A stretch of DNA of 64,000 nucleotides from positions 238,261 to 302,260 of the forward strand of contig JBAZGN010000002.1 in assembly GCA_041652815.1 (NCBI GenBank). Direction: 5' to 3'. Under the pieces are notes generated by a model that ran no database searches, was not told the origin of the DNA, and saw only the letters and a list, made by a program, of their open reading frames with translations. The DNA comes from Candidatus Omnitrophota bacterium (lineage in GTDB: Bacteria > Omnitrophota > Gorgyraeia > Duberdicusellales > 4484-171). This document shows, in pieces, positions 3,011 to 57,309 of this stretch. A program made the translations under genes and the position numbers. Position 1 is the first letter of the stretch, and every line of letters starts with the position of its first letter.

Positions 3011-3105
3011 ATGCTTGATGCTCGCTACTTGATGCTTGTAGAAAAAATAACGAGTATCTAGCATCTAGGATCGAGCATCAATGTTGAAGTTTTGGTATAA
3101 AAAAC

Positions 3106-20741: not shown

Positions 20742-21596
20742 ATGGCATTTAATGAGCTTAATTGGGTTGATTTTTTAAAGAATAAAGTAAAAAAAAGCAA
20801 TAATGTTTTGGTCGGTATAGGAGATGATTGTGCCCTGGTTAAGTTAGAAAACAGAAATGTTCTTTTAAAGAGCGATTTGTTTATAGAAGATATTCATTTT
20901 AAGCTGCAGGATACTTCTTATAAAACGATAGGTATGCGCGCGGTTGCGAGGGTACTTTCTGATATTGCCGCGTGTGGCGGCATGCCAAAATTTTTAGGCA
21001 TATCAATAGGGATTTCGCGTTTTGTAAGTGAAAAAAACCTCAAAGAAATATTAAAGGGAGCAATTTACTTAAGTAAAAAATATAATTTTCGCCTGATAGG
21101 CGGGGATACAGCTTGTACCGATAAGATTTTTTTGGATGTTTGGGCCATCGGAAGTTGTGATAAGTTTATAAAAAGAAGCACTGCTAATGATGGCGATTAT
21201 ATTTTTGTAACCGGAAAATTAGGCGAACGTAAATTTAATGAAAGTTTTACCCCCCGCCTTAATGAAGCAAAATACCTCGCCTCAAATTTTAAGATCAGCT
21301 CAATGATTGATATTTCAGACGGGTTTGCGCTTGACCTCGCCCGGTTGCTTAAAGAAAGCAGGAAAGGCGCGCTTATACATAAGAACAAGATACCGGCCGT
21401 ACACGGCGAGAGCGATTTTTATAGAGGCGAGGATTATGAACTTATTTTCACGGTAGATAAAAATGAGCGAAAAATGGATTTATTAAAGTCAAAATTTTAT
21501 TTTCTGGGGACTGTTGAAAGCCGTAAGTTTGGATATAAAATAGAGGATAATAATAAATTGAGTAAAGTAAATATAACAGGATACACACATTTCTAA
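20742..21596 (+). CDS. thiL: AIR-synthase-related protein, thiamine-monophosphate kinase-like
   Basis: The N-terminal GDDCALV...EDIHF pattern is present. The ~285 aa length fits. Confidence 0.5.
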   Translation: MAFNELNWVDFLKNKVKKSNNVLVGIGDDCALVKLENRNVLLKSDLFIEDIHFKLQDTSYKTIGMRAVARVLSDIAACGGMPKFLGISIGISRFVSEKNLKEILKGAIYLSKKYNFRLIGGDTACTDKIFLDVWAIGSCDKFIKRSTANDGDYIFVTGKLGERKFNESFTPRLNEAKYLASNFKISSMIDISDGFALDLARLLKESRKGALIHKNKIPAVHGESDFYRGEDYELIFTVDKNERKMDLLKSKFYFLGTVESRKFGYKIEDNNKLSKVNITGYTHF

Positions 21597-30096: not shown

Positions 30097-30140
30097 CGCT
30101 TTACCTTCCTTATGCCCCATCTAATTTCTAATATTCAACA

Positions 30141-31214
30141 ATGAAGAAGAAAGCTAAAGTAGCAGTTGGTTTAAGCGGAGGAATCGACTCAAGTTTCGCC
30201 GCCTATCTCTTGAAAAAACAAGGCTATGATGTCTGTGGTTTTACTCTAAAATTTTATCCGCAGGATAACCGTTGCTGCGATTTGGATGGTTTATATCAGG
30301 CGCAGCGTCTCTGTAGTAAGCTTAATATACCCCACTATACGATAGATACTACGGATTTTTTTAAAAAAGAAATAGTTGATTATTTTATTACAAGCTATCT
30401 ATCAGGGCTTACTCCTAATCCCTGTTCTTTTTGTAACCGGCTGGTTAAGTTTGGATATCTTTTTGAAAAAATAAGAGCAATGGGCTTTGACTATCTTTCA
30501 ACCGGCCACTACGCCAATATAGTAAAAAGAAAAGAACATTTGTTGTTAGGGTGTGCAAAGGATACTATCAAGTCACAGGAATATTTCTTGTCATTGATAA
30601 AGCCAGAGATTCTTCCCTGTCTTATTTTTCCTTTAGGCAGGTTTACTAAAGACAAAGTAAAAAAAATAGCCAAAAAAGAAAAACTTATGTTCCAGGAGAG
30701 GAAAGAAAGCCAGGATATATGTTTTGTGAAAGAAAAACAATATTATGGTTTCATAGAAAAGATGCTCCAAGCCCCGCAGAAATATTACGGCGATATTCGC
30801 CATATAAACGGTAAAGTCTTAGGCAGGCATAAAGGCATATATTATTTTACTTACGGCCAGCGTGCGGGCCTTGGGATAAGCTGGCATGAACCATTATATG
30901 TTTTAAAGGTTGACGAGAAAGACAATTCTGTTATTGTGGGAGAAAGAAAATACCTGAGCAAAGAAAGTTTTAGCGTAAGAAACATAAATTCTTTCATCGA
31001 TTGGAAGAATTATTTTCCGGACAATAATTTAACCGATATTAAGGTAAAAATACGCTATAATTCAAAATTTTATGATTGTATTCCGGAATTAAAAGGAGAA
31101 AGAATTTTAGTTAGCCTTAAAACTGCAGCAGAAGCAGTAACTCCCGGACAAATTGCGGTTTTTTACCACAAAGATGCGGTTTTGGCCGCCGGCGTTATCG
31201 AGAAAGATGTTTAG
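30141..31214 (+). CDS. mnmA: tRNA-specific 2-thiouridylase
   Basis: The PP-loop VAVGLSGGIDSS is present. The length is 357 aa. Confidence 0.85.
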   Translation: MKKKAKVAVGLSGGIDSSFAAYLLKKQGYDVCGFTLKFYPQDNRCCDLDGLYQAQRLCSKLNIPHYTIDTTDFFKKEIVDYFITSYLSGLTPNPCSFCNRLVKFGYLFEKIRAMGFDYLSTGHYANIVKRKEHLLLGCAKDTIKSQEYFLSLIKPEILPCLIFPLGRFTKDKVKKIAKKEKLMFQERKESQDICFVKEKQYYGFIEKMLQAPQKYYGDIRHINGKVLGRHKGIYYFTYGQRAGLGISWHEPLYVLKVDEKDNSVIVGERKYLSKESFSVRNINSFIDWKNYFPDNNLTDIKVKIRYNSKFYDCIPELKGERILVSLKTAAEAVTPGQIAVFYHKDAVLAAGVIEKDV

Positions 31215-31288
31215 GATGCCAGATGCTCGATTCTCGATGCTGGATGGTAAAACGAGTATCCAGTATCGAGGGTCAGTTACGTATTATA
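31215..31288. repeat. Intergenic dyad element, family R5 (GATGCTCGA / TCGAGCATC, AAAACGAGTATC words), copy B
   Basis: It is related to 3011..3105 and, in inverted orientation, to 33600..33679. Confidence 0.6.
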
Positions 31289-32083
31289 ATGAAACTATTA
31301 CAAAAAAAATATCTTAAGCTTAAACGCCGGATAAATAATTTAGGTTCCGCGGTTATTGCGTTTTCCGGAGGCCTTGACAGTACTATTTTGGCAAAAATTT
31401 GTTTTGATTGTTTAGGAAGAAACGCTATTGCCGTAACCGCCAAATCTGCCACTTACACATCTAGCGAGTTAAAAGAAGCAACCAAGGCTGCAAAATTAAT
31501 AGGGATAAAGCATATAGTTATAGAAACTGATGAATTTAAAAATGAAAAATTTATAAATAATCCTCTAAACAGGTGTTATTGGTGTAAACGCGAATTGTTC
31601 ATTAAATTGAAAAAGTTTGCCCGCGCGTATAAAATAAAAAATATTTTAGACGGTACGAATCTTGATGATTGTTCTGATGTGCGGCCGGGATTCGCGGCAA
31701 ATAAGGAATTTAACGTAATAAGCCTTTTCCTTGAATGCGGTTTGGCTAAAAAAGATATAAGACAATTGGCTGAAAGGTTAAATATTTCCGTGAAAACATC
31801 TAACGCCTGCCTTGCCTCGCGCATACCTTTTTACGAGAAAATCACTCCCTTGAAATTGGCAAAAATAGAAAAAGCAGAAAATATCTTAAGGAAATATTTC
31901 GGAAACAAAAACATATTACGTGCGCGTGACCATGGCGGAATTTTACGCATAGAAATGGAAAATAAAGAATGGACTAAGCTTGGTAATTCTGGTATAAATA
32001 ACCTTGTAAAAAAATTGAAAAAAATTGACTACAAATATATAACCGTTGATTTGGAAGGGTATATTCCGGCAGGACTTAGATGA
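31289..32083 (+). CDS. PP-loop ATP pyrophosphatase, LarE-like/TIGR00268-type
   Basis: The PP-loop AFSGGLDST is present. Start ATG 31289 was chosen because the upstream in-frame extension runs through the repeat element. Confidence 0.6.
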   Translation: MKLLQKKYLKLKRRINNLGSAVIAFSGGLDSTILAKICFDCLGRNAIAVTAKSATYTSSELKEATKAAKLIGIKHIVIETDEFKNEKFINNPLNRCYWCKRELFIKLKKFARAYKIKNILDGTNLDDCSDVRPGFAANKEFNVISLFLECGLAKKDIRQLAERLNISVKTSNACLASRIPFYEKITPLKLAKIEKAENILRKYFGNKNILRARDHGGILRIEMENKEWTKLGNSGINNLVKKLKKIDYKYITVDLEGYIPAGLR

Positions 32084-36509: not shown

Positions 36510-37370
36510 ATGTGGGATTATTCGGAAAAAGTAAAAGAATTCTTTAAGAACCCTCTTAATGTCGGCGAAATAGAAAATCCTGATGCAATAGGGGAAGTTG
36601 GTAGTATCATTTGCGGTGATGCCCTCAAGTTAACTCTACGTATAGATAAAAAAACAGAAAAGATAATTGATGCAAAATTTAAAACCTTTGGTTGCGCCAG
36701 CGCAATTGCATCGTCATCAGCCTTAACCGAAATTATTAAAGGAATGACCATCGATGAAGCCTCTAAAGTTACTAACCAGGATATCGCTGATTATCTTGGC
36801 GGGCTTCCTGAAGAGAAAATGCATTGTTCGGTTATGGGAATGGAGGCGCTTGAGGCTGCTATTGCAAATTACAGGGGAGCCCCGGCAAAAAAAGAAATGA
36901 TTGGCGAAGAGAAAATAGTATGCAAATGTTTTAGCGTAACCGACCAGAAAATAATACGTGCTATAAAGGAAAATAACCTAAAAACAGTTGAAGAAGTTAC
37001 CCATTATACCAAAGCCGGAGGCGGATGCGGAAAGTGTAAGCCGCAGATACAAAGCCTTCTTAATGAATTTTGGGAGAAGGAAGAAACAAAAGTTATCCAG
37101 CATAAAGAGGCGCCTAGAAAGAAAACGCTTACCAATCTCGAAAGAATATCTCTTATTAAAGAAACAATGGAAAGAGAAATCAGGCCTCAGCTTAAAGCTG
37201 ACGGCGGTGATGTTGAGCTGGTTGATGTGGATAGAAATAAAGTTTATGTAAAATTCTTAGGCGTATGTTTAGGGTGCCCTTCCGCCGGGATTACGCTAAA
37301 AGAATTAGTCGAAGCCCGGCTGCGGGAATTTATTGATAGCGACATAGTAGTTGAGGAAATTAAAGAATGA
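36510..37370 (+). CDS. nifU: NifU (N-terminal IscU-like scaffold + BFD-like [2Fe-2S] + C-terminal NifU domain)
   Basis: The IscU motifs are GCASAIASS and HCSVMG. The BFD-like segment is CKCFSV...CGKC. The C-terminal motif is CLGCPS. Confidence 0.8.
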   Translation: MWDYSEKVKEFFKNPLNVGEIENPDAIGEVGSIICGDALKLTLRIDKKTEKIIDAKFKTFGCASAIASSSALTEIIKGMTIDEASKVTNQDIADYLGGLPEEKMHCSVMGMEALEAAIANYRGAPAKKEMIGEEKIVCKCFSVTDQKIIRAIKENNLKTVEEVTHYTKAGGGCGKCKPQIQSLLNEFWEKEETKVIQHKEAPRKKTLTNLERISLIKETMEREIRPQLKADGGDVELVDVDRNKVYVKFLGVCLGCPSAGITLKELVEARLREFIDSDIVVEEIKE

Positions 37371-38524
37371 AAACCGTATATTTAGATAATAATGCAACAA
37401 CTTGCGTAGCACCCGAAGTATTTGGAGCAATGCAGCCATTTTTAACCGAAAACTATGGAAATCCTTCCAGTATGCATACTTTTGGCGGAAAGATAAAAAA
37501 GAACATAGATAGCGCAAGGGAAAGTGTTGCTGACCTAATAGGCGCAAACGATGTAAATGAAATAATATTTACAAGCTGCGGTACAGAAAGCGATAACACC
37601 GCTATAATTGGGACATTAAGGTCTTACCCCGACAAAAAACATATCATAACCACAAAAGTAGAGCACTCGGCAGTACTTAGCCTTTGTAAATATCTTGAAA
37701 CGCAGGGTTATAGAATTACGTATCTTGATGTTGGCAGCGACGGGCTGCTTGATTTAAACGAGCTCAAAAGCGCAATCGATTATGATACTGCAATGATTTC
37801 TATAATGCATGCAAATAATGAGACAGGTGTGCTTTTTCCGATAGACGAGATTGCTGAGATTGCAAGGTTGAGAGGAGTAGTTTTTCATACAGACGCAGTA
37901 CAATCTGTAGGAAAAATAAATTTGGACATGAAAAAAATTCCGGTAGATTTTTTATCTTTATCAGGGCATAAGCTCCATGCGCCAAAAGGCGTGGCAGCTT
38001 TATATGTCCGTAAAGGTACAAGGTTTTCCCCGTTTTTAATCGGAGGCCATCAAGAGCAGGGTAGGCGCGGTGGCACAGAGAATGTTGCCTCAATAGTTGG
38101 TTTAGGTGTTGCCTGTGCACTTGCCCAAAAAAATATGGATGAAGAAATTACCCGCGTTAAAAACTTGCGTGATAAACTGGAAAACGGAATTGTAGAAAAA
38201 ATTTCCAACGTCCGTGTGAATGGGCATAAAGAATTACGCCTGCCAAATACAACCAATATAGGTTTTGAATTTATAGAAGGTGAATCTATCCTGCTTAAGC
38301 TTGATGAAAAAGGCATCGCCGCGTCATCCGGCTCAGCCTGCACTTCAGGTTCGCTTATGCCTTCCCATGTTCTACGCGCAATGGGTATACCATTTACCTT
38401 TATACAGGGTTCGATAAGGTTTAGCCTTTCCCGCTATAACGGGGAAGAGGATATCGACTATACTATCGAGCATCTACCTTCAATTATAAAACTTCTGCGA
38501 GAAATTTCTCCCTACGGAAAGTAA
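37367..38524 (+). CDS. nifS: Cysteine desulfurase NifS
   Basis: The PLP-lysine SGHKLHAPKG and active-site SSGSACTS are present. It is coupled to nifU. Confidence 0.85.
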   Translation: MKTVYLDNNATTCVAPEVFGAMQPFLTENYGNPSSMHTFGGKIKKNIDSARESVADLIGANDVNEIIFTSCGTESDNTAIIGTLRSYPDKKHIITTKVEHSAVLSLCKYLETQGYRITYLDVGSDGLLDLNELKSAIDYDTAMISIMHANNETGVLFPIDEIAEIARLRGVVFHTDAVQSVGKINLDMKKIPVDFLSLSGHKLHAPKGVAALYVRKGTRFSPFLIGGHQEQGRRGGTENVASIVGLGVACALAQKNMDEEITRVKNLRDKLENGIVEKISNVRVNGHKELRLPNTTNIGFEFIEGESILLKLDEKGIAASSGSACTSGSLMPSHVLRAMGIPFTFIQGSIRFSLSRYNGEEDIDYTIEHLPSIIKLLREISPYGK

Positions 38525-38589
38525 AAAAGCATACCAGTATTAAGTTTTATCATCTAATCAGCTTCCTTTAAAAATTTTCTAAAATAGCC

Positions 38590-38618
38590 TTGACATCTAT
38601 TAAAATATATTGTATACT
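38590..38618 (+). promoter_or_regulatory. Sigma70-like promoter TTGACA-N17-TATACT upstream of the Rrf2 regulator gene
   Basis: Consensus -35 and near-consensus -10 elements sit at ideal spacing in an AT-rich UP-like context. Confidence 0.45.
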
Positions 38619-38660
38619 CTACTAAGTTTATAGAGATAGTATAAATAAGAAGGAGAAAAG

Positions 38661-39101
38661 ATGAAAATAACTTATAAAGGTGATTATGCGCTAAAGGCAG
38701 TTTTGGTTTTATCTGTAAGGTATGGCAGTGGTGTTGTGACTATCCATGACTTGGCAAAAGAGGCAGATATCCCGATAAAATTTCTCGAGCAGGTGCTTTT
38801 AGAGCTTAAAAGGGGCGGGTTTGTCGAGAGCAAAAGGGGTAAAATCGGAGGATATCTTTTAGCCAAGCATCCAGCTGAGATAAAAATAGGGGATGTGGTT
38901 AGGTTTGTTGATGGTCCGATTGAGCCGATAACTTGCGTAGAGAAAGATTATTCCGGTTGTCGAGACGTTTATAAGTGCGCATTTCGCGGTATATGGCAGG
39001 ATGTCTCAAGAGCAATCAGCGGTATAATTGATAACATTACATTTGATGACTTAGCCAGCCAGACAAAGAAACGGCAGGAAGTGTGTTCATATTCAATATA
39101 A
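38661..39101 (+). CDS. Rrf2-family transcriptional regulator (IscR/CymR-like)
   Basis: The N-terminal wHTH is MKITYKGDYALKAVLVL. The C-terminal Cys residues are present. The length is 146 aa. Confidence 0.75.
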   Translation: MKITYKGDYALKAVLVLSVRYGSGVVTIHDLAKEADIPIKFLEQVLLELKRGGFVESKRGKIGGYLLAKHPAEIKIGDVVRFVDGPIEPITCVEKDYSGCRDVYKCAFRGIWQDVSRAISGIIDNITFDDLASQTKKRQEVCSYSI

Positions 39102-39134
39102 AATAAAATGGTAATTAGTCAGTTGGAATAAAAG

Positions 39135-39323
39135 ATGGATAAGAATAAGACCGATAAAAATATTGTTAATGATGCAATAATAAAAGATATAAGTGATTCG
39201 GTCCATAATTTGAAATATGGTACTGTAACTATAACTGTTCATAACTCAAAAATAGTTCAGGTGGAAGTTGCCCAAAAAAATCGTTTTGATGATGTTTGGT
39301 TAATTGAAGGAGGTGGGATATAA
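39135..39323 (+). CDS. YezD-like small protein (DUF2292)
   Basis: The motif KYGTVTITVHNSKIVQVE is present. Its position after an Rrf2 regulator is typical. Confidence 0.5.
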   Translation: MDKNKTDKNIVNDAIIKDISDSVHNLKYGTVTITVHNSKIVQVEVAQKNRFDDVWLIEGGGI

Positions 39324-39441
39324 AATAAAAAAGTTTTTCTTAACCGGACAATCCGGACAGTATTTATAATAAATATGCATATGTAGCAGGTATTACCGGT
39401 CAACTGGATAGTCTTGCTGAAAAGATTTAGGAGGCTATCCA

Positions 39442-40299
39442 ATGAAAAAGCTTTTAATCGCATTACTTATAACTGGCGCTATCGTAAATATTCCTGTTCT
39501 TTCTTATGCAGGTCCCCCGTTTAATAGTCTTGAAGGCGAGGGTGGTGTGGCATTTAATCCATTGGCATATGTCGCTGATTCTACAGAAGAAGGCAGCCAT
39601 TTAACAGTCAAGGGTGTGGATATTATAGGTAAGCCGCGGTTCGGCGCCTGGTATGTAAATCTTCCCGATTCAAAAATTGACTGGACCGCTTTCGGCGTTG
39701 CTGATACTTTATTTAAGAGGATTGAGATTTCCTATGGTTATGAAACAATTAATTGGGAAAATCATCCGACATTTCACAAGAATAATATCGGAGCCAAGGT
39801 GCTGCTTTTGGATGAAAATTCCTTTGGTTCGCAGTTTGTTCCTGCATTTTCAATCGGAACTATCTATAAGACGACCAGCGCCAACAGCTTGCACCAATTG
39901 GGATTACCACTGCGCACAACCGGTGTTGACTGGTATGCGGTAGCAACGAAAACAATTACGCAAACCCCGCTGCCTGTGATTCTTTCCGGAGGCATACTTT
40001 CTTCTCAGGAGTATGTTACCGGTGTGCTTGGATTTGATACGGATAGAGAAATAACTGGGTTTGCTAATATTGATGTGGTTTTGCCACACGGTTTTGTGGT
40101 GGGCTATGAGTTTAAGCAGGGAGAGCAATTTGATGACGGATATAAAAACGCTAACTATTGGGACGCGCATTTGGCGTGGCTCGCGAACAAAAATCTTACC
40201 ATTATTGCAGCTTATACTTATACGGGAAATGTTAAGACCGAAACAACAAGGACTGGGTTGGGCGGAGGGTTTGTGATAAGCGCTCAATATGCTTTTTAG
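39442..40299 (+). CDS. Outer-membrane beta-barrel protein (putative porin), signal peptide, C-terminal ...YAF
   Basis: It has a signal peptide, an alternating amphipathic pattern and a terminal aromatic residue. Confidence 0.5.
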   Translation: MKKLLIALLITGAIVNIPVLSYAGPPFNSLEGEGGVAFNPLAYVADSTEEGSHLTVKGVDIIGKPRFGAWYVNLPDSKIDWTAFGVADTLFKRIEISYGYETINWENHPTFHKNNIGAKVLLLDENSFGSQFVPAFSIGTIYKTTSANSLHQLGLPLRTTGVDWYAVATKTITQTPLPVILSGGILSSQEYVTGVLGFDTDREITGFANIDVVLPHGFVVGYEFKQGEQFDDGYKNANYWDAHLAWLANKNLTIIAAYTYTGNVKTETTRTGLGGGFVISAQYAF

Positions 40300-40304
40300 T
40301 AATG

Positions 40305-40338
40305 ATTATTCCGGGTAAGTACGCTTACCCGGAATAAT
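40305..40338 (+). terminator. Hairpin ATTATTCCGGGTAAGT-ACGCTTACCCGGAATAAT after the OMP gene
   Basis: It is a 14-bp near-perfect stem, but it lacks a clean U-tract. Confidence 0.4.
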
Positions 40339-40355
40339 TTAAAAGAGGAGGTTAA

Positions 40356-41648
<1,293 letters not shown>

Positions 41649-41662
41649 TTAAGGAGGAAAAC

Positions 41663-42598
41663 ATGGCTAGAATTTTTAATAATATAGTTGATACAATTGG
41701 TAATACCCCGCTGGTAAGATTAAATCGTCTTACCGAGGGATTAAACGCGACAGTGGTTGTTAAATTAGAGTCTTTTAACCCATTATCAAGTGTAAAAGAC
41801 CGTATAGGCGCAGCAATGATTGAGGATGCTGAGAAAAGAGGGATTCTTAAAAAGAATTCCGTAATCATTGAGCCTACAAGCGGTAATACCGGCATTGCGC
41901 TTGCGTTTGTTGCTGCAGTAAAAGGGTATCGTTTAATTCTTACTATGCCCGAAACTATGAGCGTTGAGCGCAGGCAGCTCTTAAAGATATTCGGCGCGGA
42001 GCTTGTGCTCACAGACGGAACTAAAGGTATGAAAGGCGCCATAGAGAAAGCGGAAGAATTGGCTAAATCTATTCCAAACAGCTTTATGCCTCAACAGTTT
42101 AATAATCCTGCAAATCCTGAAATTCATAGAAAAACAACTGCGCAGGAAATATGGAACGATACAGACGGTAAGGTTGATATTCTTATTTCAGGTGTTGGTA
42201 CCGGCGGAACGCTTACGGGTATTTCTGAAGTGATTAAGAAAAAGAAAAAAAGTTTTAAGGCAATTGCGGTTGAGCCTGCTGATTCTCCGGTTCTATCCGG
42301 TGGTAATCCCGGCCCACACAAAATCCAAGGTATAGGCGCAGGATTCCTGCCGCAGGTTTTAAACAAAGATATTATTGACGAGGTTATCCGTGTTACTAAC
42401 GATGATGCCGGAGAAACATCCAGGCGGCTTGCCAAGCTTGAAGGAATTCTTGCGGGAATTTCCAGCGGTGCAGCTGTTTGGGCGGCTTTAGAAGTAGCGA
42501 AAAGAAAAGAAAATAAAGAAAAACTTATTGTAGTTATACTTCCTGATACAGGGGAGAGGTATCTTTCTACCTGGCTTTTTCAGGATGCTAAATCTTAA
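41663..42598 (+). CDS. cysK: Cysteine synthase A (O-acetylserine sulfhydrylase)
   Basis: The PLP-lysine SSVKDR and the GTGGT loop are present. Confidence 0.85.
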
Positions 42599-44593: not shown

Positions 44594-46357
44594 ATGAATA
44601 TAATTTTAGTTGGTAATGCCAATGTTGGTAAAAGCGTTATCTTTAACGCGCTTACCAGAAGCTATGTCACTGTTTCGAATTACCCGGGCACAACCGTAGA
44701 CATATCAAAAGGCATAGCGAAACTCGGGCTACAGAATTTTACAGTCTACGATACGCCCGGGATAAACAGCCTCATCGTTCATTCCGAAGATGAAAAAGTA
44801 ACCCGCGATATACTTTCAAAAAGCGATATCACCTGCGTTGTACAGGTTGCTGACAGTAAAAACCTCAAACGTTCGCTTGTGCTCACCCTTGAGCTTATTG
44901 AATTGGGCCTGCCACTGGTGCTTAACCTAAATATGAGCGATGAAGCAAAAGAACGCGGCATAAGCATAGACATAAAAAAACTTTCTCAAAAATTGGGTAT
45001 AGATATTGTCGAAACAGTAGCGGTAACCGGAGAAGGTATTCCTAAATTAAAAGAAGCAATCTCCCGGGCGAAAACTACGCAACCGCCTAAAGGCTTTACT
45101 GTTTTTTCTTCTGATGAAATAGCCTCACTTAGGAAAAAAAATCAGAAAATTGAAGAATTATTGAGAGATATTTTGCGTATTTCAAAACCAAAAGCCAAAA
45201 GCGCGTCTGAATTTATAGGCGCTCTTACTGTAAGCCCCATAAGCGGAATACCAATACTTATTGTTGTGCTTTTTATAATGTATCTTTTTGTTGGTAGGTT
45301 AGCTGCTGTGTGGGGTGTAGATTTTTTTGAAAATAAGATATTCGGCCAATATATTAACCCGTTTTTAGGTGGTATTATAGATAAATTTATTCCAATACCA
45401 ATCGTCAAAGAATTTTTGATGGGTCAATATGGTATTATCAGCATGGCTGTTACTTACGCATTTGCCATAATATTTCCGATAGTAACTGCATTTTTTTTAT
45501 TTTTTGGAATACTCGAAGATTCAGGATACCTGCCGCGGCTTTCTGTGCTATCGGACAAGGTTTTTAGGATAATCGGGCTTAACGGCCGCGCAATACTTCC
45601 AATGGTGCTCGGCCTTGGCTGCGGCACAATGGCAACGCTGACCTCGCGGATATTGGAAACAAAAAAAGAGCGTATTCTGGTTAGTATTATACTTACGCTG
45701 GCGATTCCCTGTTCTGCACAGCTGGGCGTGATTATGGCAATGCTTAGCCAGTTTTCGCTAAGGGCATTTCTTCTTTGGTTTTCCACGATTCTTTTCGTCA
45801 TAATCACTATTGGATTTTTATCTTCGAGATTAGTTCCGGGTAAGCGTAGCCCATTTATTCAGGAATTACCTCCGATGAGGTTTCCCCAGATTGCAAACAT
45901 TATTGTAAAGACCGGCGCCCGCCTTAAATGGTACTTAAAAGAAGCAGTGCCTTTATTTATCCTTGGAACATTTATACTCTTTGTATCCGATAAAATAGGA
46001 TTGTTAAATTTAATAGAAAGAGTTTTAAGCCCATTTATTGTAGTCTGGCTGCATTTACCCAAAGAGACAACGGCTGCATTTATTATCGGCTTTTTACGAA
46101 GGGATTACGGCGCCGCCGGATTGTATCAATTGGCAAGAGCAGGCGTACTTGATAAAATACAAATTTTCGTAAGCCTTATTGTAATAACCTTGTTTGTGCC
46201 CTGTATTGCGCAGTTTTTCGTAACAGTTAAAGAAAGAGGCCTTAAAGTTGCGCTTATGATTGCCGGTTTCGTATTTCTTTTTGCATTTTTGGCAGGAGGG
46301 CTCTTGAATCATTTGTTGCGTTATTTGATTTTGGTGAAGGGGATAGCAGTGTTATAA
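44594..46357 (+). CDS. feoB: Ferrous iron transporter FeoB
   Basis: The N-terminal G domain (GNANVGKS, DTPG) is followed by a polytopic membrane domain. Confidence 0.8.
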   Translation: MNIILVGNANVGKSVIFNALTRSYVTVSNYPGTTVDISKGIAKLGLQNFTVYDTPGINSLIVHSEDEKVTRDILSKSDITCVVQVADSKNLKRSLVLTLELIELGLPLVLNLNMSDEAKERGISIDIKKLSQKLGIDIVETVAVTGEGIPKLKEAISRAKTTQPPKGFTVFSSDEIASLRKKNQKIEELLRDILRISKPKAKSASEFIGALTVSPISGIPILIVVLFIMYLFVGRLAAVWGVDFFENKIFGQYINPFLGGIIDKFIPIPIVKEFLMGQYGIISMAVTYAFAIIFPIVTAFFLFFGILEDSGYLPRLSVLSDKVFRIIGLNGRAILPMVLGLGCGTMATLTSRILETKKERILVSIILTLAIPCSAQLGVIMAMLSQFSLRAFLLWFSTILFVIITIGFLSSRLVPGKRSPFIQELPPMRFPQIANIIVKTGARLKWYLKEAVPLFILGTFILFVSDKIGLLNLIERVLSPFIVVWLHLPKETTAAFIIGFLRRDYGAAGLYQLARAGVLDKIQIFVSLIVITLFVPCIAQFFVTVKERGLKVALMIAGFVFLFAFLAGGLLNHLLRYLILVKGIAVL

Positions 46358-46443
46358 TATTACGCAGATGATCACAGTTAAAATCATCTGTGATCATCTG
46401 TTTTGCTATCTGCGATCATCTGCGTATAAAAAAGGAAAATAAA
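46358..46443. repeat. Intergenic dyad element (CAGATGATCACA words)
   Basis: GCAGATGATCACAG...ATCATCTGTGATCATCTG...CTGCGATCATCTGCG lies between feoB and the regulator gene. It may be the operator for the DtxR-like repressor. Confidence 0.5.
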
Positions 46444-47097
46444 ATGGATTATAACCAAAGAATCGAAGAGGCTTTAACTATAATCTGGGAAGAAAGAGAA
46501 AAGAAAATCTCCAATAAAGATGCGATAGCAAAAAGATTCTTGGAGGCTGTTAACGAAGACGTTTCCGAGAGTCTATTAAGCGAAGGATTTGTTTTAATAG
46601 AAAAAGATATTATAAAATTTAGCAATAAAGGCGAATCTAAGGCGAGAGATATCATTAGGCGCCAGCGTTTGGCAGAACGCCTTTTGATGGATGTGCTTGA
46701 ACTTGGTAGGAGGGAAGTTGATTCTTCAGCCTGTGCTTTTGAGCATATATTGTCGAAAGAGGTTGAAGAAAGCATCTGTACGCTTTTGGGCCACCCTAAA
46801 GAATGCCCTCACGGTTTAAGTATTCCAGCGGGTGCATGCTGCGAAAAAGCAAAAGGCTTAATTGAAAGTATTGTCATACCGCTAACCAAGCTTAAAGTCG
46901 CAGAGACGGGAAAAATTGTTTATGTCTTGACAAGAAATCACCCTCAACTCCACAGGCTTATGTCTTTTGGCATTGTGCCGGGTGCAAGAATAAAGCTTCA
47001 CCAAACCCAGCCATCTGTTATAATACAGGTTGAAGAAACGCAAGTAGCGCTGGAAGAAGAAATAGCGAAAGAAATTTATATTAAGAAGATAAGCTAA
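46444..47097 (+). CDS. DtxR/MntR-family metal-dependent repressor with C-terminal FeoA/SH3-like domain
   Basis: It has an N-terminal wHTH plus dimerisation region with metal-site His/Cys/Glu. The C-terminal SH3-like segment is KIVYVLTRNHP...IKLHQTQ. Confidence 0.5.
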   Translation: MDYNQRIEEALTIIWEEREKKISNKDAIAKRFLEAVNEDVSESLLSEGFVLIEKDIIKFSNKGESKARDIIRRQRLAERLLMDVLELGRREVDSSACAFEHILSKEVEESICTLLGHPKECPHGLSIPAGACCEKAKGLIESIVIPLTKLKVAETGKIVYVLTRNHPQLHRLMSFGIVPGARIKLHQTQPSVIIQVEETQVALEEEIAKEIYIKKIS

Positions 47098-47144
47098 CAT
47101 TTATAATAAATTGATACCTAAGCTATTTGTAATTTAAGATAGCA

Positions 47145-47282
47145 AATTAAACAGGGGAGGTCGTGAAACGACCTGAGAGTTCCCGTAAACGGGATTACCC
47201 TTTGAACCTGTTCCGCTTTAGGCGGAACCACCTAAATATCTGTATGGGGTGGTGGTCTGGATAATGCCAGCGTAGGGAGTAG
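47145..47282 (+). promoter_or_regulatory. TPP (THI-box) riboswitch
   Basis: The GGGGAGG...CTGAGAG J3-2, ACCCTTTGAACCTG and CTGGATAATGCCAGCGTAGGGAG core are present. It lies upstream of thi4-thi4-thiM-thiE. Confidence 0.7.
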
Positions 47283-47297
47283 GTGTAATCATAATTA

Positions 47298-47330
47298 ATC
47301 CTTGTGTTGCTGGCACAAGGATTTTTCATT
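47298..47330 (+). terminator. Intrinsic terminator (riboswitch expression platform) ATCCTTGTG-TTGCTGG-CACAAGGAT + TTTTT
   Basis: It is a 9-bp stem plus a U-tract immediately 3' of the aptamer and 5' of the thi4 RBS. Confidence 0.6.
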
Positions 47331-47346
47331 TTAACAGGAGGTTGCG

Positions 47347-48147
47347 ATGTTTGAAAGGGTAAGTGAGGCGCAAGTAAGCAGGGCGATTGTCGGTGAATTT
47401 ACTAAATGGTTTCAGGAATATATTGTTTGTGATGCAATTATCATAGGCGGCGGACCAAGCGGGCTTGTAGCGGCGAAAGAATTGGCAAGCTCAGGATTTA
47501 AAACTTTAGTAGTTGAGAGTAATAATTATATCGGTGGAGGTTTCTGGATTGGTGGATATTTGATGAATACCTTAACCTTTCGATCGCCTTCCCAGGAAAT
47601 CCTTGATGAGCTTAAAATTCCATATAAAGAGGTAGAGAATAATTTGTTTGTTTCTGATGGGCCTTCGGCATGCTCCAAACTCATTTCTGCCGCATGTGAC
47701 GCGGGGGTAAAAATTCTTAACATGACAAAATTTGACGATGTTGTGCTTCGAAACAACAGGGTGGAAGGGGTTGTTATTAATTGGACGCCAGTATCGGCAT
47801 TACCAAGAGCTATAACTTGTGTAGATCCTATTTCGTTGGAGTCCAAGATTGTTATTGATGCTACAGGGCACGATGCATGGGTTTGTAAAAGTTTGGAAAA
47901 AAGGCATTTAATAAAGCTTGAAACTTTTGGCCCTATGGATATTAATACTTCGGAAGATGCTGTAGTTGAAAAGACAGGAGAGATTTATCCGGGCTTGTTT
48001 GTGTCAGGTATGGCCGTATCTACAGCGTATGGTATACCTCGTATGGGCCCGACTTTTGGTGCGATGTTGTATTCCGGTAAAAAAGTGGCAAGTCAGGTAA
48101 AGAAAATATTATCAGCTAATTCCCAAGATTTACTTCATGTCAAATAA
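47347..48147 (+). CDS. thi4: Thi4-family thiazole synthase, paralog 1
   Basis: The FAD/NAD Rossmann motif IIGGGPSGL, the ATGHDA motif and the C-terminal GMAV...GIPRMGPTFGAM motif are present. Confidence 0.75.
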   Translation: MFERVSEAQVSRAIVGEFTKWFQEYIVCDAIIIGGGPSGLVAAKELASSGFKTLVVESNNYIGGGFWIGGYLMNTLTFRSPSQEILDELKIPYKEVENNLFVSDGPSACSKLISAACDAGVKILNMTKFDDVVLRNNRVEGVVINWTPVSALPRAITCVDPISLESKIVIDATGHDAWVCKSLEKRHLIKLETFGPMDINTSEDAVVEKTGEIYPGLFVSGMAVSTAYGIPRMGPTFGAMLYSGKKVASQVKKILSANSQDLLHVK

Positions 48148-48201
48148 CCCCATTGACATGCTGTTAATGACGAAACAGATTTTTATAAAAAAGGAGTAAA
48201 A

Positions 48202-48975
48202 ATGCAGCTAGATGAAATTAAAATTTCCAAAGCTATCATTGAGTCGTTTAACAAAAAATTGATAGATGCCTTGGATGTTGATGTGGCGATAGTTGGAGCA
48301 GGCCCTGCTGGAATGGTTTGCGGCTATTATCTGGCAAAAGCTAATAAGAAAGTTGTGCTTTTTGAGAGAAAACTTTCAGTTGGAGGAGGAATGTGGGGCG
48401 GTGGAATTATGTTTAATGAAATTGTAGTACAGGCTGCGGCCAAAAGAATCTTGGATGATTTTGGCGTTAAAAGCCGGCTTTATGAGAAAGGTTATTACCT
48501 TGCTGATTCGATTGAATCTGTTTCAGTTATCTGTTCGAAAGCGGTTCAGGCAGGATTGAGGATTTTCAATCTAATTAGCGTTGAAGATGTAATGGTGCGG
48601 AGCAAAAAAGTAACCGGGCTTGTGTTAAACTGGACAGCAGTTGAAATGGCGAATTTGCATGTTGACCCGATTACAATGCGGGCTAAATTTGTAGTGGATG
48701 CGACAGGCCATCCAGCAGAAGTGGCAAGGATTGTTGAAAGAAAATCAGGCATAAGGCTTGAAACTAAAACCGGTAAAACCATGGGCGAAGAATCAATGTG
48801 GGCAGAAGTCGGAGAAGATACCATTGTGAAAAATTCCAAAGAAATTTGCCCCGGCTTATATGCATGCGGTATGTGTGCAAATGCCGTATTCGGCGGGCCA
48901 CGCATGGGCCCGGTATTTGGCGGAATGCTTTTGGCCGGAGAGCATGTTGCAAAAGACTTGCTCAAGGTGCTTTAA
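48202..48975 (+). CDS. thi4: Thi4-family thiazole synthase, paralog 2
   Basis: The [15 protein letters not shown] and GMCA...[12 protein letters not shown] motifs are present. Confidence 0.7.
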
Positions 48976-49012: not shown

Positions 49013-49816
49013 ATGATTAAAACAAAAATTGATGTGTGTAGTTTATTAAAGAAAATCAGAAAAGAGAAGCCAATTGTGCACCATTTAACCAATTGGGTTA
49101 CGATTTATGATTGTGCAAACATAGTAAAAGCGGTGGGTGCTTCTCCGGTTATGGCGCACGCCAAAGAGGAAGTCGCTGAAATGGCGAATATTGCCTCAAG
49201 CCTTGTTTTAAATATCGGAACGCTAACGCCCGAATTTGTTGAGGCAATGAAAATTGCTGCCAGAAGTGCAAATAAAAAGGGAATTCCTGTTATCCTTGAT
49301 GTTTGCGGCGCAGGCGCAACGCGGTTACGCGATGAAAAATCTTTTGAGTTGTTAAATGAAGTAAAGATAGATATTATTAAAGGAAATGCTTCCGAAATTG
49401 TGAGGCTTTCCGGAGAAAACATTCGGACAAAAGGCGTAGATTCTGCCGAGGTCGAGCAAGATATACTTGCTGTTAGTGGGTGGCTTGCAAACAGGTTTAA
49501 AGCCGTTATTGTAGCCACAGGCAAGCATGACATTGTAAGAGGTAAAGACAAGAGCTATATTATAAAAAATGGCCATCCGATGATGACGCATGTTGTAGGA
49601 ACTGGCTGTATGGCAGCATCGGTTATCGGAGCATTTGCCGCCGTTAGCAAAGATTTAATTTATGCAGCCTCATCTGCGCTTGTATGTTTTGAGGTTGCTG
49701 CAGAGCTTGCTGCTAAAAAATCCAAAGGCCCGGCTTCGTTTAAGGAGGAACTATTTGATCGTATTTTCAATTTAGACGAAAGAACAATCAATAAAATGCA
49801 AAAGATATATTTATGA
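49013..49816 (+). CDS. thiM: Hydroxyethylthiazole kinase
   Basis: The ThiM-like core includes the ...MMTHVVGTGC region. RBS GGGGGTG is 5 nt before ATG 49013. Confidence 0.8.
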   Translation: MIKTKIDVCSLLKKIRKEKPIVHHLTNWVTIYDCANIVKAVGASPVMAHAKEEVAEMANIASSLVLNIGTLTPEFVEAMKIAARSANKKGIPVILDVCGAGATRLRDEKSFELLNEVKIDIIKGNASEIVRLSGENIRTKGVDSAEVEQDILAVSGWLANRFKAVIVATGKHDIVRGKDKSYIIKNGHPMMTHVVGTGCMAASVIGAFAAVSKDLIYAASSALVCFEVAAELAAKKSKGPASFKEELFDRIFNLDERTINKMQKIYL

Positions 49817-50418
49817 AAGGTTATTATTTTATTACAGGTAGCTTTTTAAGCCGGCTTGGAAACGTAAGTGACGTTAAAAATGCTTTGAAGGCAGGAGTAA
49901 AAATCGTGCAGTACCGTGAAAAAAATGCGGCTACTTACGAAATGTATATCGAAGCGCTTAAGTTAAGAAAAATCTGCAAAGACATAATTTTTTTGATAAA
50001 CGATAGAGTCGATATAGCTTTGGCATCCGGCGCAGACGGCGTTCATCTTGGGCAAAGTGATTTACCGTATCGAATGGCAAGAAAATTATTGGGAAAAAAG
50101 AAAATCATTGGAGTTACCGTGCATAGTTTAAAAGAAGCTAAGGTGGCACAGGCTAAAGGCGCTGATTACGTGGGTATTGCGCCGATATTTCCTACCTCAA
50201 CAAAACCGGATGCAAGAAATCCCGTAGGAATAGAATTAATACAGGAGATAAAAAAGCATATAAACTTACCTATAGTAGCTATAGGCGGTATAAATCTTTC
50301 AAATGCCAAGGAAGTGATTGCATCCGGAGCCAATTGTGTATGTGCTATATCTGCAGTGGTTGCCAGCAAAAACGTAAAGCGTCAAATAAATAAATTTCAA
50401 AAGATGTTTAATGCTTAG
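49813..50418 (+). CDS. thiE: Thiamine-phosphate synthase
   Basis: The TIM-barrel ThiE motifs INDRVDIAL...GADGVHLGQSD are present. The length is 201 aa. Confidence 0.85.
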   Translation: MKGYYFITGSFLSRLGNVSDVKNALKAGVKIVQYREKNAATYEMYIEALKLRKICKDIIFLINDRVDIALASGADGVHLGQSDLPYRMARKLLGKKKIIGVTVHSLKEAKVAQAKGADYVGIAPIFPTSTKPDARNPVGIELIQEIKKHINLPIVAIGGINLSNAKEVIASGANCVCAISAVVASKNVKRQINKFQKMFNA

Positions 50419-53225: not shown

Positions 53226-53756
53226 ATGAGCATAACCACGAAAACAGGCGATAGCGGAAAAACTTCTTTATTTTTTGGAGAAAGGATTTCTAAAGATGAT
53301 TTGAGAGTAGAGGCGTATGGAACGCTCGATGAGTTATGTTCATTCATGGGCATGGCAAAGAGCCTGGTTAAAGATAAGGCTACTAAAGGAATTGTAGAGG
53401 GCATCCAGCGCGATTTATTTATAATTGGTGCAGAAACAGCAACCCTGCCCAAATCCTTGAATAAACTTAAAAAAAGAATAAATACTAATTATGTATCAAA
53501 ACTTGAAAAGCTCATAAGGCACTGGGAGAGCAAAAAGAAATTCGAAGCCCGTTGTTTTTATTTACCGGGAGAAAACCTAATTTCCAGCTCTTTTGATATA
53601 TCAAGGACTATTGCGAGAAGGGCAGAACGCCTGCTGGTTGCTTTAAAAAGAAAGAAAATTATTAAAAATCCTGATATAATTATTTATCTAAACAGATTGT
53701 CCGATCTTTTATATCTTTTTGCGCGTAATTACGAAAAGAAGCCTAAAAGAAAGTAA
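53226..53756 (+). CDS. PduO-type ATP:cob(I)alamin adenosyltransferase
   Basis: The N-terminus is TKTGDSGKTSL. The ~176 aa length fits the PduO-type fold. Confidence 0.75.
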   Translation: MSITTKTGDSGKTSLFFGERISKDDLRVEAYGTLDELCSFMGMAKSLVKDKATKGIVEGIQRDLFIIGAETATLPKSLNKLKKRINTNYVSKLEKLIRHWESKKKFEARCFYLPGENLISSSFDISRTIARRAERLLVALKRKKIIKNPDIIIYLNRLSDLLYLFARNYEKKPKRK

Positions 53757-54516: not shown

Positions 54517-55650
54517 ATGTTGATTAAAGCAAATATTAGCCTGGAAGAAAAACTTTCTATATTATCAAATGACTCGAAATATGACCTTGCCTGTGCCTGC
54601 GCTCCTTCTAAAGAGGAACATCGTAAGCGCTCGAAGGAAGATAAATGGATATATCCGGTTGTATTTCCTAACGGAGGCAAAACTTTTCTTTTTAAAACCC
54701 TTCTTTCCAATGAATGCATCAATAATTGTAAGTATTGCCCTTTAAGGATAAATGCAGATACAAAACGCTTAAGGTTAGAACCAGAAGAGCTTGTTAGGCT
54801 ATTTCTATCGTATTATAAAAGCGGAAAAGTATCCGGACTTTTCCTAAGCAGCGGCGTTATAAATAACCCCGACGTTACAATGGAACGTATCAACCATGCG
54901 GCAGTTTTACTGCGCCGTCAAAATTTCAGAGGTTACATTCATTTAAAAATTATTCCGGGAGCCTCAGACGCAGCTATCCGTAAGACGATTGCCTTGGCCA
55001 GTGCCGTATCGCTTAACATTGAAACAGCCGGAGAAGTAAATTTCAAAGAGCTTTCTACGACAAAGAACTATCTGCGTGACATAATAAACCCAACAAACCT
55101 TATCAGTAGATTAACTCAAAGGGGCTCTTTCTATCAAAACGTAAAACATACTACACAGTTTGTTGTCGGCGCATCCAAAGAGACAGATAAAGAGATTGTA
55201 GGCTATAGCTGGAAGCTTTATAGGGAGTTTAACCTTGACCGCGTATATTTTAGCAGTTATCAGCGCGGCGCAGGCGCGCAGGATTGTTTCGGCGAACGTT
55301 CCAGCTATACGAACAACCAATTGCTTACTCGGGAACACAGGCTTTATCAGGCAGACTGGTTGCTGCGTAAATACGGATTTCAAGCCTGCGAAATCCCTTT
55401 TTGTCCGGATGGTAACCTTTCTCTGGAGACTGACCCAAAAGAAATGTGGGCGCGAAGGCATCCGGAATCCTTCCCGATAAACATAAATAAAGCAGATAGA
55501 TTGAGCCTTCTTCGTATACCAGGTATCGGTATAGTTCTGGCAGAACGCATCCTTGCCTTTAGGAAAAACCGCGTAAAGTTGAGCTCTCTATCTGATTTGG
55601 GAAAAGTAAATAAAAACTTGAGAAAAGCCTTATCTTATATAGCTTTTTAG
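54517..55650 (+). CDS. Putative DNA modification/repair radical SAM protein (CxxxCxxC + C-terminal helix-hairpin-helix)
   Basis: CINNCKYCP is the radical SAM cluster motif. The C-terminal HhH is LLRIPGIGIVLAERIL. The length is 377 aa. Confidence 0.7.
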   Translation: MLIKANISLEEKLSILSNDSKYDLACACAPSKEEHRKRSKEDKWIYPVVFPNGGKTFLFKTLLSNECINNCKYCPLRINADTKRLRLEPEELVRLFLSYYKSGKVSGLFLSSGVINNPDVTMERINHAAVLLRRQNFRGYIHLKIIPGASDAAIRKTIALASAVSLNIETAGEVNFKELSTTKNYLRDIINPTNLISRLTQRGSFYQNVKHTTQFVVGASKETDKEIVGYSWKLYREFNLDRVYFSSYQRGAGAQDCFGERSSYTNNQLLTREHRLYQADWLLRKYGFQACEIPFCPDGNLSLETDPKEMWARRHPESFPININKADRLSLLRIPGIGIVLAERILAFRKNRVKLSSLSDLGKVNKNLRKALSYIAF

Positions 55651-55726
55651 CATAGGCAATACTAGTTGACAAATCCCCAGATAGGCGTATCATAAACATA
55701 CAAACAAACAAAAGATTAGAGTTCTT

Positions 55727-55768
55727 AGCCGTAAGGATAGGATAACTAACTTTACGGCTTTTTTATTA
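55727..55768 (+). terminator. Hairpin AGCCGTAA-N16-TTACGGCT + TTTTTT in the csp leader / after the radical SAM gene
   Basis: It has an 8-bp stem and a U-tract. It lies between a TTGACA-N16-TATCAT promoter-like site (55666..55693) and the csp RBS. Confidence 0.4.
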
Positions 55769-55803
55769 ATAGCGCACTTAGGTTGCGCAAAAAAGGAGGT
55801 TCA

Positions 55804-56013
55804 ATGCATACAGGTAAAATCAAAAAACTAGTCAGGGAAAGAGGTTTTGGCTTTATTAGTGACACTGACGGAAGCGAAGTGTTTTTTCACAAAAGCAGCT
55901 TGCTTGAGGCTCAGTTTGATTCTTTGAACGAAAACCAGGAAGTCGAATTTGAAACCCGTAAAGGCCCAAAAGGCCCAAGTGCTGTCAGCGTCCGTGTAAA
56001 AGCCCAACAATAG
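55804..56013 (+). CDS. Cold-shock protein (CspA family)
   Basis: The RNP1-like RGFGFI and the beta-barrel core are present. The length is 70 aa. The RBS AAAAAGGAGG precedes it. Confidence 0.8.
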   Translation: MHTGKIKKLVRERGFGFISDTDGSEVFFHKSSLLEAQFDSLNENQEVEFETRKGPKGPSAVSVRVKAQQ

Positions 56014-56022
56014 TTTATCGAT

Positions 56023-57309
56023 ATGAAAATAGCGTTTATCGAGCCTAGCCCTGTTGAGAGCAATGTTTACAGTAAATTGCACATGCCATTGCTGGGCCCT
56101 CTTTATTTGGGAGCAATCCTTAAACAACGAGGGCACCAGGTTTCGATTTTTAACGAAAATATTTACCGCCCCGATTATTCAAAACTTGATGCGGATTTAA
56201 TCGGAATTTCTATTCTTACCTCAACTTCTAAACGCGGCTATGAAATAGCCAAAAAATTTCCAAAAGAAAAAGTAATTATCGGAGGAGTCCATGCGAGTTT
56301 GCTCCCTGAAGAGTCTCTGCAATATGCGCGGCAAGTTGTTATTGGAGAAGCAGAAGAAGTTATCGCTGACATAGTTGAAGGCAGGATGAAAGATCCTATC
56401 GTGCGCGGTAGGGAAGTTAAAAATCTGGATAGTCTGCCGCAGCCGGATTTTTCTCTGGTAAAAGGCTATAAAATTCCGGCAATGATTATGCCGGTTTCTA
56501 CATCCAGAGGTTGCCCTTTTGACTGTAGTTTTTGTTCGGTAACAAAACTTTTTGGACGAAATTACCGTTTTAGAAGCGCGCAAAGTGTTATGCAGGAATT
56601 ATTAACGCGGAGAACCGGTACTTTATTTTTCTGCGATGATAATTTTACCGCTCATCCAAAGCGTACAGAAGAGTTATTGAAGCTTATGATGGAAAATAAG
56701 ATAAATAATTGGACATGTCAAGCGCGTTGCGATGTTGCTAAGAATGATAAATTGCTTAATATGATGGTTCGTGCCGGCTGCACCACGGTTTGCGTGGGCT
56801 TTGAGTCGGTTAACAACAAAACACTTGAGGCATACCACAAAAAACAAACAATAGAAGATATAATAAAAGCCATAAAATCTTTTCATAGAAAAAAAATTAA
56901 AATTCACGGTATGTTCATTTTAGGAGCAGATCAGGATAGCGCAAAAACCGTATGGGAAACATTAAAGTTTGCGATAAAGCAAAAAATTGATACTATTCAG
57001 ATGTCAATCCTAACGCCTTTCCCTGGGACTAAAATTTGCGAAGAGCTGGAACGGGAAAAAAGGATTTTTAGCCGCGACTGGAGCCTTTATGACGGCCAGC
57101 ACATTGTTTTTAAGCCAAAGCTACTGTCTGCGAGAGAACTTCAGCTAAACGTTGTAAGAGCGTATGCCAAATTTTATTCGCTTTCTAATTCTTTAGCTTT
57201 ACTTTTAGGGCTACGCTTAAGAAATGCTTTCTTTAGATTTATGGGCAACAGGATTGTTAAGAAATGGGTTGCTCATAACCGAAAGATGCAGTGGATACTG
57301 CAAGGATAG
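56023..57309 (+). CDS. B12-binding domain radical SAM protein (class B, DUF4070-like C-terminus)
   Basis: The N-terminal cobalamin-binding Rossmann-like domain is followed by SRGCPFDCSFCSV. The length is 428 aa. Confidence 0.75.
   Translation: MKIAFIEPSPVESNVYSKLHMPLLGPLYLGAILKQRGHQVSIFNENIYRPDYSKLDADLIGISILTSTSKRGYEIAKKFPKEKVIIGGVHASLLPEESLQYARQVVIGEAEEVIADIVEGRMKDPIVRGREVKNLDSLPQPDFSLVKGYKIPAMIMPVSTSRGCPFDCSFCSVTKLFGRNYRFRSAQSVMQELLTRRTGTLFFCDDNFTAHPKRTEELLKLMMENKINNWTCQARCDVAKNDKLLNMMVRAGCTTVCVGFESVNNKTLEAYHKKQTIEDIIKAIKSFHRKKIKIHGMFILGADQDSAKTVWETLKFAIKQKIDTIQMSILTPFPGTKICEELEREKRIFSRDWSLYDGQHIVFKPKLLSARELQLNVVRAYAKFYSLSNSLALLLGLRLRNAFFRFMGNRIVKKWVAHNRKMQWILQG

Follow-up and report, generated by a model that had tools for sequence, protein, structure and literature searches.

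Why would a bacterium place two different Thi4 thiazole synthases next to each other, behind a single thiamin pyrophosphate (TPP) riboswitch? The question is raised by a 64,000-nucleotide stretch of DNA from a metagenome-assembled genome of Candidatus Omnitrophota (contig JBAZGN010000002.1), which is called the window in the following and from whose first letter all positions are counted. Its thiamin (thi) operon has the order TPP riboswitch with intrinsic terminator, a Cys-type Thi4 gene (copy A), a His-type Thi4 gene (copy B), thiM and thiE. Judged from its sequence, the operon probably encodes two functional adenosine diphosphate thiazole (ADT) synthases of different sulfur chemistry, both of them switched by the one riboswitch. 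Both Thi4 families are already known, and only their rare pairing in one operon is notable, not a new kind of system. In full-text searches of the literature we found no description of both Thi4 types lying adjacent in one riboswitch-controlled bacterial operon. The features of the operon are the following.

47143..47295, + strand: TPP riboswitch aptamer with a 52-nt P3 insertion (RF00059, 46.6 bits, E 5e-8, model positions 1-105 of 105)
47297..47333, + strand: intrinsic terminator that serves the riboswitch as expression platform (stem of 12 bp with a 3-nt loop, followed by the T-run TTTTCATTTT)
47347..48147, + strand: copy A, Cys-type Thi4 thiazole (ADT) synthase of 266 amino acids (aa), intact open reading frame (ORF), GenBank MCK9615411.1
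48202..48975, + strand: copy B, non-Cys (His153) Thi4 of the sulfide-dependent catalytic type, 257 aa, intact ORF, GenBank MCK9615412.1
48995..49816, + strand: thiM, hydroxyethylthiazole kinase (PF02110 271 bits; NF006830 328 bits)
49813..50418, + strand: thiE, thiamine-phosphate synthase (PF02581 219 bits; TIGR00693 216 bits)

Are both genes truly Thi4 genes? The Pfam model PF01946 (cut-off 26.2) matches both proteins end to end, with 225 bits for copy A (1-235 of 235) and 268 bits for copy B, and the NCBIfam model TIGR00292 (cut-off 148.3) gives 247 and 315 bits, respectively. Each copy is 100% identical to its GenBank entry, and the ORFs on the opposite strand are short shadow ORFs. A preliminary description of this DNA had proposed two adjacent Thi4 homologues, clearly diverged but sharing motifs, ahead of thiM-thiE and under riboswitch control. 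All of these points are borne out: the ORFs are complete, the copies are 36% identical across 259 aa, the motifs GGGPSG/GAGPAG, ATGHDA/ATGHPA and PRMGPTFGAM of copy A with its counterpart in copy B are present, thiM and thiE follow by their profile matches, and the aptamer with its terminator lies directly upstream. The likely true start of thiM is the ATG at 49013, and its product is 88% identical to the 266-aa ThiM of L165 (L-numbers denote comparison loci from related genomes or metagenomes).

The two copies differ at the position of the sulfur donor. Alignment with methanogen Thi4s and with the yeast enzyme, a check that had been proposed at the outset, placed Cys158 of copy A there and, as in the methanogen enzymes, His153 of copy B. 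The other key residues of copy A are the metal ligands Asp160 and His175, Arg232 and Glu57, the Glu that binds the ribose hydroxyls, and its dinucleotide-binding motif GGGPSG stands at residues 34-39. The segment ITC158VDP aligns gap-free with QSC172MDP of Arabidopsis THI1 (PDB 1RP0 numbering), the donor loop has plant length, and the C-terminal PRMGPTFGAM is of the eukaryotic form. In yeast the motif is QCC205MDP, and the counterparts of Cys158, Asp160 and His175 are Cys205, Asp207 and His237. Yeast Cys205 is the established sulfur donor (PMC4215014). The donor Cys (CVDP) is present in 120/120 of the closest database homologs of copy A, as well as in all 81 homologs from GTDB species genomes, which span bacteria and archaea. 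A second residue, Cys109 (GPxAC109SKLI; window 47671-47673), is also invariant in 81/81 A-family proteins, and the same column holds Thr, Pro or Val in plant, methanogen, Thermovibrio and haloarchaeal-like Thi4s. By its donor-position Cys, copy A is predicted to be a member of the Cys-dependent ('suicide') Thi4 class (EC 2.4.2.60), in which a single turnover leaves dehydroalanine in place of the Cys; for copy A such a single turnover is putative.

Several prokaryotic Cys-type Thi4s have been described. Copy A is 68% identical to cObThi4 of Ca. Omnitrophica bin.255 (NQT28552.1), compared over the N-terminal 127 residues only, and 62% identical to Methanobacterium MB1Thi4 over the N-terminal ~127 aa only. 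Both of these enzymes complement E. coli ΔthiG (PMC13325395), and Cys165 of Haloferax HvThi4 is needed for thiamin prototrophy (PMC4215014). All three have the donor Cys and the metal ligands as in copy A, and the neighbours of such genes elsewhere are those of the A family (CysK, NifS, NifU, MnmA, LarE, DUF6775-like, Rrf2). What sets copy A apart from these examples is its place between a TPP riboswitch, which immediately precedes it, and a non-Cys Thi4 gene, which immediately follows. One representative protein of 255 aa, P0295, is 48% identical to copy A, has Met at the donor-Cys column and keeps the equivalent of Cys109; it would be a non-Cys member inside a Cys-type neighbourhood.

Copy B carries His153 (NLH153VDP) at the donor position, with Asp155 and His170 as metal ligands, Arg234, Glu55 as the Glu that binds the ribose hydroxyls, and a GAGPAG dinucleotide-binding motif at 32-37. 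The pattern H[VI]DP occurs in 120/120 close homologs, the His being invariant. Copy B matches Thermovibrio ammonificans TaTHI4 (7RK0) with 306 bits and 54% identity, and the methanogen enzymes of Methanocaldococcus (MjThi4, 4Y4M) and M. igneus (4Y4N) with about 229 bits. In TaTHI4, Met158 occupies the Cys position, Asp160 and His175 are the ligands, Arg239 holds the glycine-imine carboxylate and Glu56 binds the ribose hydroxyls; this enzyme complements ΔthiG in a sulfide-responsive manner (PMC8454699). Its Asp160, His175 and Arg239 align with Asp160, His175 and Arg232 of copy A and with Asp155, His170 and Arg234 of copy B. The non-Cys sulfide-dependent enzymes of methanogens (MjThi4, M. igneus) share with copy B the His at the Cys position, the Asp/His ligands, the Arg and the Glu, whereas TaTHI4 has Met where copy B has His, a residue reported to be irrelevant to catalysis. 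Copy B would therefore be a sulfide-dependent catalytic Thi4 (EC 2.4.2.59), and its likeness to TaTHI4 suggests multiple turnovers with free sulfide and Fe(II) or some other metal. No TRASH gene adjoins copy B, in contrast to L170 and L172, where YHS/TRASH genes are found nearby.

The preliminary description had supposed one catalytic enzyme together with a sacrificial or regulatory partner. The difference between Cys158 and His153 is in keeping with a sacrificial enzyme beside a catalytic one. There is no indication of a regulatory partner; both copies keep every catalytic residue examined. Automatic annotation nevertheless calls MCK9615411.1 and MCK9615412.1 alike 'sulfide-dependent adenosine diphosphate thiazole synthase'. 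For copy A this name is probably wrong, because the TIGR00292 equivalog model merges Cys-type with non-Cys Thi4s, and the shared name hides the distinction between the Cys type and the sulfide type.

How is the pair controlled? An Rfam scan of the whole window at the gathering threshold gave no match, and the aptamer emerged only in a local E-value search. It covers the full RF00059 model, and its 46.6 bits lie under the gathering cut-off of 54.3 bits because of the 52-nt P3 insertion; the orthologous aptamer of L166, without this insertion, scores 74.7 bits and passes the cut-off. The insertion (47215-47266) forms extra hairpins and is common to L165 and L168 and absent from L166. In L165, L166 and L168, where these elements stand ahead of B, aptamer and terminator share 86-88% identity with those of the window, and the terminator (folding energy -14.2 kcal/mol, z -2.3) is kept in all three. 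Gene neighbourhoods were compared in 80 GTDB loci for the A family and in the 80 closest metagenome loci for the B family. TPP riboswitches above the Rfam cut-off were found upstream of A alone (L005, L006, L011), upstream of B alone (L085, L092, L166), and ahead of A', a relative of copy A, in L168. Among the 80 B-family loci, at least 48 have a TPP-like motif ahead of B; of the 80 A-family loci, 13 have one immediately ahead of A or of an operon thiM-thiE-A. Aptamer, terminator platform and downstream thiM-thiE are alike in the window and in the syntenic B-thiM-thiE loci, as in TPP-riboswitch thi operons (riboswitch-thiazole synthase-thiM-thiE); the window differs from these by its P3 insertion and by having two thiazole synthase genes, not one. 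Riboswitches of the cyclic di-GMP-I (c-di-GMP-I) type occur immediately 3' of a B-type Thi4 gene in L097 (6874-6950) and L099 (6875-6955).

Both copies have good ribosome-binding sites. The 54-nt spacer between them contains no terminator and no significant structure by folding, and promoter-like matches in it are no more frequent than in shuffled sequence. Because the spacer lacks significant structure, copies A, B, thiM and thiE most likely form one transcript.

These features suggest the following scheme. When TPP is scarce, the terminator at 47297-47333 would not form, and A, B, thiM and thiE would be transcribed together. With NAD+ and glycine as substrates and free sulfide as sulfur source, copy B would then form ADT at a metal centre held by Asp155 and His170, turning over repeatedly as the Thi4s of Thermovibrio and Methanocaldococcus do. 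Copy A would perform the same ADT chemistry with sulfur taken from its own Cys158, after which it would be either sacrificed or recharged by a persulfide or thiocarboxylate relay, as was recently proposed for prokaryotic Cys-Thi4s. ThiE would join the thiazole phosphate with the pyrimidine, ThiM would salvage free thiazole, and ThiL (20742-21596) would complete TPP. With both enzymes together, the thiazole supply may be buffered against changes in free sulfide, metal or oxygen. We infer that both enzymes are active, each with the sulfur source given here, and that such buffering is the physiological reason for keeping both.

Some points weigh against this reading. A Cys at the donor position is not sufficient for suicide activity, as TaTHI4 M158C gained none (PMC8454699), and for prokaryotic Cys-Thi4s both a single turnover and service by a relay are under discussion in the literature (PMC13325395). 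A ThiG/ThiS route is absent within the 64-kb window only, and the remainder of the genome may hold one. Copy A is missing at this site in the closest relatives, L165-L167, and is therefore dispensable there unless those genomes have a copy elsewhere. With a single riboswitch ahead of both genes, nothing indicates that their regulation depends on conditions, and that the pair serves different sulfur regimes is something we infer.

Is such a pair known from other organisms? One Cys and one non-Cys THI4 per genome have been reported for Methanobacterium AL-21/SWAN-1 and Pyrococcus NA2/CH1 (PMC4215014), and for barley, wheat and oat (bioRxiv 10.1101/2020.04.29.067249). Like the window, these organisms each keep both a donor-Cys and a non-Cys THI4. 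However, the two THI4s of cereals are expressed in different tissues, and for the archaeal pairs no operon link has been reported, whereas the window pair is bacterial, adjacent, predicted to be co-transcribed and under one TPP riboswitch. Making thiazole at the price of the enzyme costs a great deal, and catalytic THI4s are targets of crop engineering. In 2026 the Hanson laboratory asked whether prokaryotic Cys-Thi4s really destroy themselves in each turnover (PMC13325395). For this question the operon offers a compact natural test system, with the same host, the same regulation and two chemistries in an anaerobe, and L165-L167, without copy A at the site, can serve as close comparison relatives.

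The origin of the pair was examined as well. The preliminary description had regarded it as a duplicated Thi4, an idea that does not survive: besides being only 36% identical to each other, the copies each have hundreds of relatives at 75-94% identity and represent two ancient clades. When 1.8 billion proteins are reduced to 50%-identity representatives, the groups nearest to copy A are Cys-type and those nearest to copy B are His-type. A recent tandem duplication was accordingly rejected, since the copies are not each other's closest relatives and fall into separate Cys and His groups. Nor is Thi4 exotic in bacteria, as had been assumed, because each type is frequent in Omnitrophota, Planctomycetota, Elusimicrobiota, Chloroflexota and further phyla (PMC8454699; PMC13325395). 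The survey of Cys-type prokaryotic Thi4s counts >400 genes in at least 26 phyla including Omnitrophica and describes their sulfur-relay neighbourhoods (PMC13325395); non-Cys Thi4s have also been surveyed (PMC8454699). The 80 A-family loci (60-84% identity) come from Omnitrophota, Planctomycetota, Elusimicrobiota, Chloroflexota, Aminicenantes, Methanobacterium, Thermoplasmatales and others. A foreign origin of copy A or copy B was considered and dropped, as GC contents of 40.7% and 43.3% against 38.9% for the window, with third-position GC (GC3) like that of the neighbours, gave no signal.

Direct adjacency of A and B is rare: it was seen in 0/80 A-family loci and in 1/80 B-family loci (L097), i.e. 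1/160 together, and a B-type gene lies within 10 kb of A in 3 of the 80 A-family loci. Dehalococcoidia and Thermoplasmatales loci have both Thi4 types within 10 kb. In the B family, 77 loci have B alone, and B-thiM-thiE, thiM-thiE...B and riboswitch-A-B (L097) occur once each. The Omnitrophota members of the A family often form riboswitch-A-thiM-thiE or thiM-thiE-A operons; A-thiM-thiE operons are found in L005-L008, L016 and L023, and B-thiM-thiE operons exist too. The GenBank accession neighbourhoods of cluster members yielded only the pair MCK9615411/12 and one ambiguous MCX57xxxxx pair, and the contig or whole-genome-shotgun (WGS) prefixes of long contigs showed no overlap between A and B carriers. 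The closest relatives have the MetW-FeoB-DtxR-riboswitch context in common with the window at 82-84% nucleotide identity. Among them, L165-L167 read riboswitch-B-thiM-thiE, and L168/L169 read riboswitch-B-thiM-thiE-riboswitch-A'. Nucleotide homology with L165, L166 and L168 (82-88%) ends at window 47326-47332, the end of the terminator, and restarts at 48191 (L168) or 48211 (L165, L166). This makes copy A a clean indel of one gene, either gained here or lost in the relatives:

47333..48190, + strand: copy A with its ribosome-binding site and spacer, absent from the closest syntenic relatives

The riboswitch-A unit is collinear with A-thiM-thiE loci at about 74% identity. The ratio of nonsynonymous to synonymous substitution (dN/dS) of copy B is 0.03-0.05, and copy A has a dN of 0.13-0.14 with saturated synonymous sites; both copies are under strong purifying selection. 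In L165, about 780 extra bases with tiny ORFs only (2916-3685) lie between the DtxR gene and the riboswitch, and another insertion lies between the terminator and B.

The clean indel bears on the most serious rival explanation, which takes the A-B tandem for a neutral passing stage of gene gain or loss, with Omnitrophota swapping A- and B-based thi operons and one copy on its way out. The existence of both single-enzyme operon types in Omnitrophota and the rarity of direct adjacency agree with such transient redundancy. However, neither ORF is disrupted, no catalytic residue is missing, both genes have good ribosome-binding sites, and purifying selection on both families is strong. Moreover, the Cys/His pairing recurs at one locus in three arrangements (riboswitch-A-B-thiM-thiE in the window, riboswitch-A-B in L097 and riboswitch-B-thiM-thiE-riboswitch-A' in L168), loci of Dehalococcoidia and Thermoplasmatales hold the two types no more than 10 kb apart, and Methanobacterium and Pyrococcus have retained a Cys type together with a His type (PMC4215014). 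We consider a transient state possible but rather unlikely.

A variant of the two-enzyme reading deserves a similarly modest chance: in anaerobic bacteria copy A might be a multiple-turnover enzyme and no suicide enzyme, its Cys158 being re-sulfurated by a persulfide relay, possibly via Cys109 and nearby genes of the NifS/LarE/MnmA type. If this were true, co-transcription of A and B would provide two non-redundant entries of sulfur into thiamin, namely protein-bound persulfide and free sulfide.

A less probable proposal turns copy A mainly into a general sulfur-trafficking protein of the Thi4 fold, with chance or a need for sulfur supply as the reason for its place in the thi operon. The commonest A-family neighbours outside thi operons do fit it (Rrf2 31/80, CysK 26, NifS 24, O-acetylhomoserine sulfhydrylase 23, NifU 20), and so does the second invariant Cys109, absent from other Thi4 clades. 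Yet TPP riboswitches stand directly upstream of A-family genes in many loci, A-thiM-thiE operons exist and all ADT-synthase residues are conserved; furthermore, the complementation of ΔthiG by cObThi4 and MB1Thi4 (PMC13325395) and the need for HvThi4 Cys165 in thiamin prototrophy (PMC4215014) argue for thiazole synthesis. We regard this proposal as improbable.

Could copies A and B instead form mixed octamers, with A as a sulfur-donating or regulatory subunit for B? Thi4s are octamers (PMC8454699), and the two genes, separated by 54 nt, are predicted to be co-transcribed. At 36% identity, with each type occurring alone in most genomes and operons and with a full active site kept in each copy, such hetero-oligomers seem very improbable. 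Finally, the suggestion that the name Thi4 conceals, for one of the copies, a ribose-1,5-bisphosphate isomerase or an enzyme of NMP salvage has virtually no chance and, on sequence evidence, is rejected because it rests on an early misannotation of His-type Thi4, still borne by PDB entries 4Y4M and 4Y4N, whereas the real enzyme is of the IF-2B/e2b2 family (PMC4215014), whose models match neither A nor B (the sole IF-2B protein of the window is MtnA at 19699-20739, with 424 bits for TIGR00512 and 198 bits for TIGR00511 against a cut-off of 314), and A- and B-type genes both lie behind TPP riboswitches.

The remainder of the window contains one more gene of the same pathway and a stretch of sulfur genes.

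20742..21596, + strand: thiL, thiamine-phosphate kinase, same pathway but outside the operon (TIGR01379 185.3 bits, cut-off 184.15)
28050-32083 and 36510-42598: sulfur-trafficking stretch with a NifS-like cysteine desulfurase, NadA, MnmA, LarE (sacrificial sulfur transferase), NifU, NifS, Rrf2 (38661-39101), DUF3034, homocysteine synthase and CysK

The thiL product, 284 aa long and shorter than usual, is barely over the model cut-off; its gene directly follows mtnA (S-methyl-5-thioribose-1-phosphate isomerase, the IF-2B protein named above) and precedes tsaE. Among window ORFs of at least 150 aa and small intergenic ORFs, none is thiG, thiS, thiF, thiH, thiO, thiC, thiD, DUF6775 or TRASH. A 62-aa ORF at 39135-39323 was considered as a ThiS candidate and rejected, as it ends in GGGI, not GG. 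The sulfur-trafficking stretch precedes the thi operon at a distance of 5-19 kb, and genes of these kinds are the ones most often seen beside A-type Thi4 in other phyla. After DUF3034 it continues with homocysteine synthase, CysK, MetX and MetW, and then with FeoB and a DtxR-FeoA regulator. FeoB, FeoA and the DtxR-FeoA regulator, sometimes with a YHS protein, lie directly upstream of riboswitch-Thi4 in the window (44594-47097) as well as in L165-L169 and L172-L174, regardless of whether the first Thi4 gene is A or B. The proximity of Feo genes may be linked to the Fe(II) requirement of Thi4. On the other side of the operon, thiE is followed by a P-type ATPase gene, downstream of which we observed a cob(I)alamin adenosyltransferase gene (53226-53756) and two radical-SAM genes, one with a B12-binding domain (54517-57309).

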